In this document: in pieces, positions 16,845-20,000 of the stretch | Numbering within the stretch: position 1 is the stretch's first letter | Layout of the letters: every line of letters begins with the position of its first letter | Virus record (IMG/VR): IMGVR_UViG_3300038312_000089 | From: an uncultured virus (IMG/VR IMGVR_UViG_3300038312_000089) | Lineage: Duplodnaviria > Heunggongvirae > Uroviricota > Caudoviricetes | Direction: 5' to 3' (one strand) | DNA: 20,000 bases | The notes under the pieces: generated by a model | The model's input: only the letters and a program-made list of their open reading frames with translations | Told to the model about the DNA's origin: nothing | Database searches by the model: none | Translations under genes and position numbers: made by a program

Positions 16845-18092
16845 ATGGATTATCCATTTGGAATTGACATCAGCAAACATCAAGGCACAAATGACTTTGT
16901 GAAGATGAAAGCCAACACCGCTTTTGTGTTCGTCAAGGCTACTGAGAGTTGGGGCTACACAGACCCAAAGTTCTACGCAAACTGGCAAGGGCTTATCGGT
17001 CACAATAGGGGAGCGTACTGCTACGTCTGGCTATCAGACGACCCACTCAGGCAAGCGAATCACCTCATTGATATCGTGGCTAACGCAGGCGTTGATTGGC
17101 GATACGATCGCTTGGTACTCGACCTTGAAAAGAGCGGACACGGACTATCGAAAGCAGAAGTCACAAGACGCGTACTCGTGATGATGGAACGGATAAAAGA
17201 AATCACGGGTAGATATCCGATTCTTTACTCTCGCAAGTACTGGCTACAGGACAATATGCTTATCACCGACCCACGATTGATTAATGCTGACTGGTGGTTG
17301 GCTTATTATCGAACGGCACTGCCGTATCCTTTGTTTACACCTGAGATGCCGTCACCGCCATTGATGCCTAATGGTGTGAGTAAGTGGCTCATTCACCAGA
17401 CTTGTGAGCGGGGCAAAGGGCGTGAGGTCGGCGTTGGCAGTTACTACGTTGACCAAAACCGATTCAATGGCACAAGAGCCGAACTTGACAGCTTCTTTGG
17501 GCGCGGCACGAATATTTACCTTCCGATTATCACCAAACCAGAACCAGTTGAAGATGACTGGACTGGACTACTGAGAGTGAAGTTGTGGTCACAGCACGAC
17601 CCACGTTGGGGCGGCGACCGCATGGGTGAATCCTACTGGAGGCTCACAGAAAAAGGCTGCCTGGTTACCAGCGTGGCTATCTATCTGGATTTTCTGGGAA
17701 TAGATACCGACCCAGAACAATACAACCAGTTACTTGGCATTCATGGGGGATATCAATACGTTACCGAAAATGGTATCAAATATGCGAATATGTACTGGAG
17801 AATTCCAGGCGTGCTATTTCCTGAGATTCAAAAGGATCTCGCTGACTACACCTGGTACTGGAATGGCACTGGCTGGGAAACACAGGCACGCTCCATACTG
17901 AGTAGCAAACGCCCTGTGTTAGGTCTCGTGGATATGTACGCAGGCGGTGCACTCAATCAGCATTGGGTCGTCATTGTCGGTGAACGTGCTAATGGTTGGT
18001 GGGCAGTTGATCCGGATACGGGCACGTTGATTAATCTCAGTAAATATCAAAATAAAGTATATCGAATCGTTAGCTATCGGAGGCTTCAATGA
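16845..18092 (+). CDS. Endolysin: N-terminal GH25 muramidase plus C-terminal C39-like cysteine peptidase domain
   Basis: RBS AGGAGG before the ATG at 16845. GH25 motifs GIDISKHQG, FVFVKATE, VLDLE, YPILYS and VDQNRFNG. C-terminal motifs SQHDPRW...GCLVTS...HWVVIVG...VDP. Confidence 0.88.
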   Translation: MDYPFGIDISKHQGTNDFVKMKANTAFVFVKATESWGYTDPKFYANWQGLIGHNRGAYCYVWLSDDPLRQANHLIDIVANAGVDWRYDRLVLDLEKSGHGLSKAEVTRRVLVMMERIKEITGRYPILYSRKYWLQDNMLITDPRLINADWWLAYYRTALPYPLFTPEMPSPPLMPNGVSKWLIHQTCERGKGREVGVGSYYVDQNRFNGTRAELDSFFGRGTNIYLPIITKPEPVEDDWTGLLRVKLWSQHDPRWGGDRMGESYWRLTEKGCLVTSVAIYLDFLGIDTDPEQYNQLLGIHGGYQYVTENGIKYANMYWRIPGVLFPEIQKDLADYTWYWNGTGWETQARSILSSKRPVLGLVDMYAGGALNQHWVVIVGERANGWWAVDPDTGTLINLSKYQNKVYRIVSYRRLQ

Positions 18093-18181
18093 AGCAAGAA
18101 GTCAGACGCGGTAGAAAATTTGTAGAATACCACCTCGGCATCGGCTGGGGCGGCATAGGGTATAGAAACGAGGCAAAATGA
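18089..18181 (+). CDS. 30-aa mini-ORF (MKQEVRRGRKFVEYHLGIGWGGIGYRNEAK), possibly a gene remnant
   Basis: RBS GGAGG at 18079-18083. ATGA overlaps with both the lysin stop and the next start codon. Confidence 0.55.
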   Translation: MKQEVRRGRKFVEYHLGIGWGGIGYRNEAK

Positions 18182-18393
18182 TAACAGTAAAAGTGACGAA
18201 TTGCACGATTGTTGAAAGCGAGATGGTTGTATCGTGCCAGACAACCAACACGGCGCACCCGAATATTACGCTTGAATTTTCAACCAAACACGGCTGCGGG
18301 CAAACGCTGGAAGGCGTGCAGAGTGAGATTGACGGCGGCGCAAAACTGTTGTGGATTGCGTACGCAAAACCGCAATGGAACGTTGTAGCGTAA
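18178..18393 (+). CDS. Hypothetical protein (71 aa)
   Basis: GAGG upstream, same strand as its neighbours, fills the gap before the propeller gene. Confidence 0.65.
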   Translation: MITVKVTNCTIVESEMVVSCQTTNTAHPNITLEFSTKHGCGQTLEGVQSEIDGGAKLLWIAYAKPQWNVVA

Positions 18394-18404
18394 GGTAGGC
18401 TATT

Positions 18405-19415
18405 ATGGCTCATACTTGGTCGGAAGTACAGCCTGCTGGAATTGCGGATAAGAGTTGGCAAACCTCCGCAATGTCTTCTAACGGGTCAAAGATTATCGCT
18501 GGCATTAACGGTGGTCGGCTTTACTTGTCCACTAATTCAGGTACAAATTGGTCGGAAGTCCAACCTGCTGGTGATGCGGATAAGATTTGGCAAACCTCCG
18601 CAATGTCAAGTGATGGGTCTGTTATTCTGGCTGGCGTTAATGGTGGTCGGATTTATCTCTCAACCAACTCAGGCACATCTTGGTCGGAAGTCAAACCCGC
18701 TGGAGACGCGAATAAGAGTTGGTATACCTCCGCAATGTCGGATGACGGCTCGGTCATTCTGGCTGGCATAAATGACTCCACCAATGGTCGGCTCTACTTA
18801 TCCACTAACTCAGGCACAAACTGGTCGGAAGTACGACCTGCTGGGGACGCGAATAAGTATTGGCGCACCTCGTCAATGTCAAGTGATGGGTCGGTTATTA
18901 TCGCTGGCGTTTACAATGGTCGCCTCTACTTATCCACTAACTCCGGTTCGTCTTGGTCGGAAGTCCAACCTGCTGGAAACGCGAATATGAGGTGGCGTAC
19001 CTCCGCAATGTCTTCTAACGGGTCAAAGATTATCGCTGGCGTGTATAGCACCACCAATGGTCGTCTTTATTTGTCCACCAATTCAGGCACAAACTGGTCG
19101 GAAGTACAACCCGCTGGAGTCGCGGATAAGAATTGGTACGTCTCGTCAATGTCGAGCGACGGGTCAAAGATAATCGCTGGCGTTTACGGTGGTCGGCTCT
19201 ACTTATCCACCAATTCAGGCACAAATTGGTCGGAAGTCCAACCTGCTGGAAACGCGGATAAGGGTTGGTCTACCTCCGCAATGTCGGATGACGGGTCAAA
19301 GATTATCGCTGGCGTTTACGGTGGTCGGCTGTATCTCGGCACGGAAGCAGGGGGTGGCGACCCATCATCCATCATCAACCATATTATGCACTATCGAAGA
19401 CTAATGAGCAGATAG
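18405..19415 (+). CDS. Seven-repeat beta-propeller protein (BNR/Asp-box-like), putative adhesin/receptor-binding protein
   Basis: Seven 44/47-aa repeats WSEVxPAGxA(D/N)xxWxxSxMSxxGSxIxAGxxxGR(L/I)YLSTNSGxx, with Asp-box-like STNSGxxW. No signal peptide. Confidence 0.88.
   Translation: MAHTWSEVQPAGIADKSWQTSAMSSNGSKIIAGINGGRLYLSTNSGTNWSEVQPAGDADKIWQTSAMSSDGSVILAGVNGGRIYLSTNSGTSWSEVKPAGDANKSWYTSAMSDDGSVILAGINDSTNGRLYLSTNSGTNWSEVRPAGDANKYWRTSSMSSDGSVIIAGVYNGRLYLSTNSGSSWSEVQPAGNANMRWRTSAMSSNGSKIIAGVYSTTNGRLYLSTNSGTNWSEVQPAGVADKNWYVSSMSSDGSKIIAGVYGGRLYLSTNSGTNWSEVQPAGNADKGWSTSAMSDDGSKIIAGVYGGRLYLGTEAGGGDPSSIINHIMHYRRLMSR
18417..19337 (+). repeat. Seven intragenic tandem repeats of 132/141 bp
   Basis: Each unit begins with the invariant TGGTCGGAAGT, at 18417, 18549, 18681, 18822, 18954, 19095 and 19227. 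Spacings are 132, 132, 141, 132, 141, 132. Confidence 0.97.
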
Positions 19416-19424
19416 GGAGTTACT

Positions 19425-20000
19425 ATGAACATTCTCAAACAATCAACAGCGGCAACAATCAAGCTTGGACCCTTCGTGGATGACACGGACGGCAAGACAG
19501 CAGAGACCGCTCTCACAATCGGGCAAGCGGATATCCGTCTCAGTAAAAATGGCGGTGACATCGCGCAATCCCATAACACAGCGGGCGCAACCCACGACGA
19601 GTTGGGCTACTATGATATCCCGCTCGACACGACCGACACGGGCACGCTTGGCAGGTTGCGGGTGCTGGTCAGCAAGGCGGGCGCATTGCCAGTGTGGCAG
19701 GACTTTTTGATTGTGACCGCGAATGTGTTCGACACCTTCTGCTCTACTGGCAGCTTGAACGTCAACGCGGCAAGCCTCTCGACCGATGTTATCACCGCCG
19801 CAAGTGTGAAAGCCGATGCGGTCACGAAAATCCAGAGCGGACTGGCAACGCCAACGAATATCACCGCTGGCACTATCACGACTGTGACCAACCTTACTAA
19901 CCTACCAACAATGCCAACCGACTGGGTAACGGCTGCAGGCTTGAAAGCTGATGCTGTTACTGAGATTCAAAGTGGGCTTGCTACGGCTGCGGCGCTTGAC
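19425..20000 (+). CDS. Putative virion structural/fibre protein, 3'-truncated by the window edge (not in the ORF track)
   Basis: RBS GGGAG at 19415-19419, ATG at 19425, no stop to the window end: MNILKQSTAATIKLGPFVDDTDGKTAETALTIGQADIRLSKNGG...HDELGYYDIPLDTTDTGTLGRL...GALPVWQDF..., then Thr/Ala-rich repeats (KADAVT(K/E)IQSGLAT twice). Confidence 0.85.
   Translation, partial: MNILKQSTAATIKLGPFVDDTDGKTAETALTIGQADIRLSKNGGDIAQSHNTAGATHDELGYYDIPLDTTDTGTLGRLRVLVSKAGALPVWQDFLIVTANVFDTFCSTGSLNVNAASLSTDVITAASVKADAVTKIQSGLATPTNITAGTITTVTNLTNLPTMPTDWVTAAGLKADAVTEIQSGLATAAALD

Follow-up and report, generated by a model that had tools for sequence, protein, structure and literature searches.

The closest described parallel to the blade shuffling reported here is found in the fungal HNWD NLR sensors (het-d and het-e of Podospora anserina). 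In the accessible part of PMC12222747, these possess seven-blade propellers of highly similar repeats with four hypervariable codons on the interaction face, and their repeat shuffling and length variants are attributed to recombination. Highly repetitive, recently amplified propellers, as presented in the accessible parts of PMC9218822 and PMC5587647, have a blade identity above 60% and keep diversity at hot-spot sites. The gene studied here (18405..19415, + strand) encodes a seven-bladed Asp-box-type beta-propeller of 336 aa with no visible signal peptide; its position is counted in the window, the whole 20,000-nucleotide stretch of DNA that was analysed. It resembles the HNWD proteins in its similar blades and in hypervariable codons that strand topology and hot-spot spacing place on the interaction face, but it differs in being a stand-alone propeller with no HET or NACHT domain, in having Asp-box rather than WD40 blades, and in having repeats that are 74-85% identical at the nucleotide level, as opposed to 80-100% in HNWD. 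The phage propeller is a member of the Asp-box group rather than an HNWD protein or, as far as the DNA searched shows, a target of a diversity-generating retroelement (DGR). Blade shuffling of this sort has been described before, and the gene adds a case to it; the gene slot with a shared tail in which it lies is newly found.

The window corresponds to the late region of a tailed phage. Pfam and PHROGs identify its terminase, GH25 endolysin and tail genes, and gene order was used to assign the rest. A second assembly of the same phage (L010; 99.97% identity across 11,452 nt) extends 8.1 kb further downstream and encodes two integrases and a repressor, indicating that the phage is temperate; judged by its genes, it is a temperate siphovirus. 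The phage DNA examined amounts to ~28 of the 37.7 kb of the contig behind L010. The repressor region (L010:12806-16744) has a tyrosine integrase on either side (n=2), and look-up of the integrase returned mixed taxa, with one cluster mainly from Chloroflexota. Both the propeller and a reverse transcriptase (RT) are absent from the nearest virus record, the 63% complete G001, which is uninformative.

The propeller belongs to a cassette that follows the endolysin, away from the main tail module, and shares the orientation of the late structural genes. At its head is the endolysin (GH25 plus a C39-like domain; 16845..18092, +), and the propeller gene is directly 3' of the endolysin in the window, L001, L002, L013, L015 and L026. 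A conserved 71-aa ORF (18178..18393, +; a cluster of 106 members) also stands directly 5' of the propeller gene in L001, L007, L008, L013, L015 and L026. It precedes the propeller in all six close loci having upstream DNA and was not found in the 80 loci where the partner gene described below accompanies another head; it may serve the propeller specifically, as a cap or chaperone. A spacer of ~90 nt between the endolysin and this ORF (18093-18175) is missing from L001, L015 and a second variant in run X1.

The array comprises seven repeat units of 132 or 141 nt (18417..19346, +) that begin at 18417, 18549, 18681, 18822, 18954, 19095 and 19227, and is reported by Tandem Repeats Finder with period 132, 6.8 copies and score 817. 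Three-codon insertions lie in the b-c loops of repeat 3 (18774..18782, +) and repeat 5 (19047..19055, +). The open reading frame, the seven repeats and both insertions are as a previous sequence-only reading had described them, and all 28 codons that it quoted from the most variable columns (9, 13, 15 and 31) are correct, 25 of them ending in C or T. Its description of the framework as almost invariant was overstated: 21 of 37 aligned columns are invariant (12 are two-state and 4 have three or more states), with a mean blade identity of 76.6% aa, comparable with the highly repetitive propellers, and 47 of 111 nucleotide columns are variable. Nor is variation as concentrated at the four sites as it had proposed, since column 31 has two states only (N/Y) and columns that it left out (pN of 0.62, 0.64 and 0.50 at 21, 25 and 35) vary like its columns 13 and 15 (0.59 and 0.66).

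Structure prediction supports the seven-bladed propeller that had been proposed: AlphaFold2 (60 sequences) gives a pLDDT of 95.6 and a pTM of 0.90, with a C-terminal helix at residues 320-335; the Sortilin-Vps10 profile matches with an E value of 1.3e-18; and the best Foldseek and profile matches are Ycf48, a seven-bladed WD40 protein, GH74 and sortilin, with Ycf48 and WD40 at the top of the Foldseek matches. A box of the form S-T-N-S-G-x-x-W, with Asn replacing Asp, occurs at all six internal junctions in the window, and L001 has Asp at five of six. The product combines this motif with a predicted propeller fold; the accessible part of PMC9218822 defines Asp-box/BNR propellers by an SxDxGxTW-type box between strands c and d. 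Ycf48/HCF136, GH74 and the sortilin Vps10 domain share the fold and the box motif with the phage propeller, but are only 13-20% identical to it, and the phage propeller is near-symmetric, with Asn for the box Asp. The GH...WD dipeptides and DHSW tetrad of WD40 proteins are absent from its repeat, which has no WD40 Pfam match. An enzymatic role (GH74 or sialidase-like) is unlikely, as the variable sites change from blade to blade and from allele to allele; the match to NF045728 is far under its cut-off, and no catalytic site was identified.

The predicted strand order places columns 9-13 in the d-a loop, column 15 at the start of strand a, and column 31 at the end of strand b or in the b-c loop. 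By this topology the four columns are predicted to lie on the top face, a face assigned from strand topology and hot-spot spacing rather than from atomic distances. Columns 13, 15 and 31 are spaced 2 and 16 residues apart, matching the WD40 hot spots R1-2, R1 and D-1 (residues 16, 18 and 34 in the accessible part of PMC3419727). The earlier proposal of variable residues on one face is supported: three of its four sites match the top-face hot-spot spacing. Columns 21 and 25, in the a-b loop of the opposite face, vary too. Its reading of the product as a likely binding protein is also supported, and the propeller protein is probably host-binding. Column variability of close phage blades correlates with that of cellular blades (Spearman 0.80) and of 269 protein blades (0.75), which makes the variable face a trait of the family.

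The history of the seven blades is no more tree-like than that of codon-shuffled blades: the best of 945 trees has a consistency index of 0.583, compared with 0.582 +/- 0.013 after codon shuffling, and none of 160 clonal simulations had an index below 0.667 (minimum 0.667). This equality favours recombination, which the sequence-only reading had named as an alternative mechanism. Four-gamete incompatibility, a looser statistic, affects 142 of 231 pairs, a level attained by 2-5% of clonal simulations. Because incompatibility is flat over distance (P = 0.48), tract length is not given by the data, and distance decay was set aside as evidence for recombination. Simple saturation is an unlikely cause, since no variation is seen at 6 of 16 fourfold sites when either all seven blades or all those with the same codon prefix are compared.

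Comparison with close relatives extends this pattern between genes. The window and L001 are nearly identical in nucleotide sequence around the array (221/227 in the 5' flank, 49/51 in the tail and 74/75 in the next gene), whereas their blades are 77.5% identical at the same position and 77.9% at other positions (P = 0.63); positional orthology of the blades has been erased between the two. The loop insertions of L001 are in repeats 1 and 6, as against 3 and 5 in the window. Upstream flanks of L015 and L013 align to the window at 224/227 and 223/223 nt, and their arrays are 76% and 70% identical to it in amino acids; overall, relatives with 97-99% identical upstream DNA differ by ~25% in the array. 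Blade identity is 78.4% within the window, 77.9% within L001 and 77.5-77.9% between them, and some window blades are nearer to L001 blades (up to 87%) than to any of their own (maximum 85%). The within-protein closeness of highly repetitive propellers is thus not found in the window, and blades as alike between genes as within them point to one recombining pool common to both genes, not to a single amplification in each. L002, with blades 84-100% alike internally and ~60% identical to those of the window, looks independently amplified. Exact repeats of 126 nt (L001), 191 nt (L002) and 108 nt (L011) occur within arrays. Repeat-number polymorphism of the HNWD kind may be represented by L015, which has 4 repeats in the same cassette, whether real or through assembly collapse. 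The blades behave as a pool in which, we infer, repeats recombine.

The propeller frame is under purifying selection. Across 49 blades, none of them with cut ends or very short loops, the frame has a dN/dS of 0.16, the top face 0.61 and the four sites 0.78; the corresponding values for the window only are 0.21, 0.81 and 1.32. As regards selection of the kind considered for HNWD, the four-site range of 0.78-1.32 is biased upward by the post-hoc choice of sites, so that positive selection is not demonstrated.

The codons at the variable columns had been read as the product of adenine-directed mutagenesis by a DGR. DGRs, according to the accessible part of PMC10907252, alter only positions that are adenine in the template, and their targets share with the phage propeller variable residues on a binding surface and many NNY codons; they differ in that a DGR acts on one C-terminal variable region, while the sites here are spread across seven repeats. 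Asp, Asn or Tyr, which the genetic code writes with NNY alone, account for sixteen of the 28 codons, in agreement with selection for these residues, the other cause that had been suggested. Given the amino acids, 21.6-22.4 NNY codons are expected and 25 are observed (P = 0.014-0.052, with no correction for the post-hoc choice of columns or for common ancestry); the excess is a small residual, not a strong signal. At the four columns, NNY codons number 149/168 in close relatives, 93/124 in other phages and 188/244 (77%) in cellular homologues, as counted with a blade pattern that skipped last blades and to which the window contributed 6. The third-base pyrimidine may have been kept through shallow divergence from AAY, GAY and TAY codons, which would not fully explain the residual excess.

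Variation in the array extends beyond adenines: A is missing from 17 of the 47 variable nucleotide columns, 9 columns have only C and T, C-T differences make up 106 of the 503 pairwise differences between blades, and two synonymous A sites are invariant among all seven. The search for a template and an RT, by which the DGR proposal was to be checked, found neither in the DNA searched. No template copy of the repeat is present in 27,103 nt of the phage outside the gene, where the best matches are 11-15 nt long, and RVT_1 is present in none of 31 propeller-bearing viral records (0/2 and 0/29, a set that does not include L009, L010 or L015), 4 of which are at least 90% complete, with control genomes positive. 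RT is likewise absent among the ORFs of the window and L010 (~28 of 37.7 kb) and among 32 further ORFs of L009, L010, L013 and L015. RT matches occur in 4 of 10 propeller-bearing cellular genomes, and the 7 RT loci tested from those genomes have no sequence in common with the propeller genes. The allele is stable across two assemblies: between the window and L010 the endolysin differs by 3 SNPs and the propeller gene by none, and two X1 contigs (18474-18839, 366 nt, depth 126; 19011-19255, 245 nt, depth 113) cross the array with no alternative letters, both comparisons being limited by the loss of rare variants from contigs. Depths from X2, X5 and X10, which combine several organisms, were left out of any ranking. 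The DGR proposal is not supported. In the literature, subscription papers aside, no propeller was found as a DGR target, nor do the accessible parts of PMC7159879 or PMC10743442 contain one.

The propeller ends in a Gly-rich linker and a basic C-terminal helix (residues 320-335; 19347..19412, +) with an HY..R motif, a proposed docking peptide. The next gene (19425..20000, +; 546 aa in full in L010:10877-12517), referred to as the partner, encodes a conserved N-terminal Ig-like domain of ~105 aa that is present in viral clusters and bears no Pfam, PHROG or NCBIfam name (PHROG 0/53 members). The domain is predicted with a pLDDT of 91.2 and has generic Ig-like structural matches only (top Z 8.2). 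The TP901-1 BppU type is a siphophage pair of baseplate-upper and receptor-binding proteins, and the locus resembles such pairs in having a conserved Ig-like adaptor next to a variable head. The partner matches 3uh8 (Z 6.4, rmsd 3.0, 87 aligned) and 6v8i (Z 6.6, rmsd 3.0, 88 aligned) weakly, with Z values within the generic Ig-fold range, and the HY..R tail and adaptor differ in carrying no family name in the libraries scanned. The N-terminal domain of the partner is kept while the length of its middle varies (L010:10877-12517, 546 aa; L009:331-2289, 652 aa; L015:10323-13007, 894 aa), which suggests a stalk of adjustable length.

We surveyed the slot by taking the gene just 5' of the partner in the best 80 of 105 viral matches to the partner domain. 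An HY..R-type motif ends 50 of the 69 distinct upstream proteins from these matches, as against 6 of 416 control ends (other long-frame ends of the same loci); the pattern was written after the positives had been seen and before the control. The bodies of the 69 form 43 BLASTP clusters. A domain scan of 40 upstream proteins left 28 in no family and found LamG in 9, DUF2341 in 2 (one of which is also among the LamG proteins), CBM96 in 1 and LRR_5 in 1. Out of sample, the pattern fits the upstream gene of the cultured phage PP496355; among 120 propeller homologues from the family search it occurs in 2, neither convincing. The same tail on mostly unrelated heads suggests that binding heads are interchangeable and dock on a conserved adaptor; the helix, we infer, docks the head onto the partner, and the pair would decorate the virion. 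No description of such a head-and-adaptor module was found in the literature, subscription papers and the supplements of PMC9218822 aside.

The propeller family extends well beyond this phage. Among 8000 candidates, the family search found 847 homologues, many of them fused to T9SS, LysM or FN3 domains, and 10 cellular genomes and 31 viral loci carry relatives, with none found among 50,697 GenBank phages. The alleles of the window (18405-19415), L001:8946-9956 and L015:9725-10312 (0/3) are absent from a collection of 15 billion proteins that includes the window's neighbouring proteins; the family search returned no close allele either, and gene callers or filters may miss these genes. L005, L006, L011, L014 and L026 have the propeller fused to a short-repeat stalk and no HY..R tail, with the propeller mid-stalk in L011. 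L020 (G037:C4) is a 9036-aa open frame with many family blades in sets of ~7 and Ig-like spacers between them, and L038-L040, L042, L047 and L051 have a shorter repeat of 40 aa, in a 14-blade array with the same variable positions. The gene also appears as a CRISPR target: a stretch corresponding to 18659..18692 is flanked by CRISPR-like repeats in an X1 contig, as a spacer against the propeller gene, and one aimed at the constant frame would match several blades at once. L012 is, in its whole length, an array of 89 spacers, one of which resembles the repeat junction (26/28 nt to the window); two match L015 fully, a third does so over 25 nt, and one matches L009 fully. The CRISPR repeat of L012 is presumably of type I-C.

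The explanation that we favour, and consider fairly probable as a whole, is that of an accessory binding head, tethered and swapped as a whole, whose blades are diversified by repeat recombination without an RT. The gene product would be an accessory ligand-binding head of a temperate siphovirus, predicted from its context to be most likely on the virion. Its seven similar blades form the predicted propeller, with the variable residues assigned to the top face and the core under purifying selection. Diversity would arise from ordinary point mutation and from frequent short-tract recombination or gene conversion between repeats, both within one gene and between co-occurring phages. Such exchange would homogenise the frame, permute the top-face residues and shift loop insertions among blades, as the observed pattern suggests. 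At the C-terminus, the HY..R helix probably tethers the head to the partner's N-terminal Ig-like domain, and whole heads (propeller, LamG, CBM96, LRR) appear from the gene pattern to be swapped in the slot.

The principal alternative is a recently amplified propeller drifting under relaxed loop constraint, with shuffling as a passive by-product of repetition and of little adaptive meaning. Top-face dN/dS of 0.6-0.8, not above 1, would fit such drift, as would the variability of the same columns family-wide in the correlations given above and the wide occurrence of repeated propeller amplification (accessible part of PMC9218822). We nevertheless think it rather unlikely, because the arrays are ~25% diverged between nearly identical flanks, the variable sites are known hot-spot positions rich in Y, R and N, and the slot in other phages holds lectin-like heads. 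Those heads also bear on where the protein acts. A non-virion protein that serves the lysogen, inside it or at its surface, or that works during lysis (a cytoplasmic binder, for example, or lysis-cassette cargo), and that is still repeat-recombined, would sit well directly 3' of the endolysin, where the gene is found in the window and five other loci. Against such a protein stand an orientation shared with the late structural genes, the weak resemblance of the partner to tail or baseplate Ig-like domains (Z 6.4-6.6), the extracellular-type lectin folds in the same slot, and the T9SS, LysM or FN3 domains of cellular homologues; such a role is distinctly improbable. Least credible is a DGR acting in trans, from the host or an unseen part of the phage, that writes the variable codons. 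The small NNY excess, a T at the third base of column 13 in 6 of 7 repeats, and the reach of the DNA searched, which falls ~9.6 kb short of the whole 37.7-kb contig that L010 comes from and stops before the host genome, speak for it; the variable columns without A, the C-T differences, the invariant synonymous A sites, matches of no more than 15 nt, RVT_1-free records and stable allele all speak against it, and we regard it as very unlikely indeed. Diversification by repeat recombination, the reading preferred here, would involve no reverse transcriptase.

The locus would extend HNWD-style repeat shuffling to a phage protein, and its analysis disposes of an attractive but misleading DGR signal: a preference of binding sites for Asp, Asn and Tyr is enough to make variable codons rich in NNY. 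A broader interpretation, which we offer tentatively and hold to be somewhat less than an even prospect, is a widespread unnamed two-gene module in which environmental phages may plug almost any ligand-binding domain on a conserved Ig-like adaptor via the HY..R helix, to which propeller heads would add a community-wide recombining blade pool, giving a two-level receptor repertoire free of RT. The shared C-terminal tail is a more useful lead than the array. If the tail is a docking peptide, it explains the occurrence of very different lectin-like heads in one slot of uncultured phages, and heads would be predictable from gene order; the docking proposal is testable in the cultured phage PP496355.
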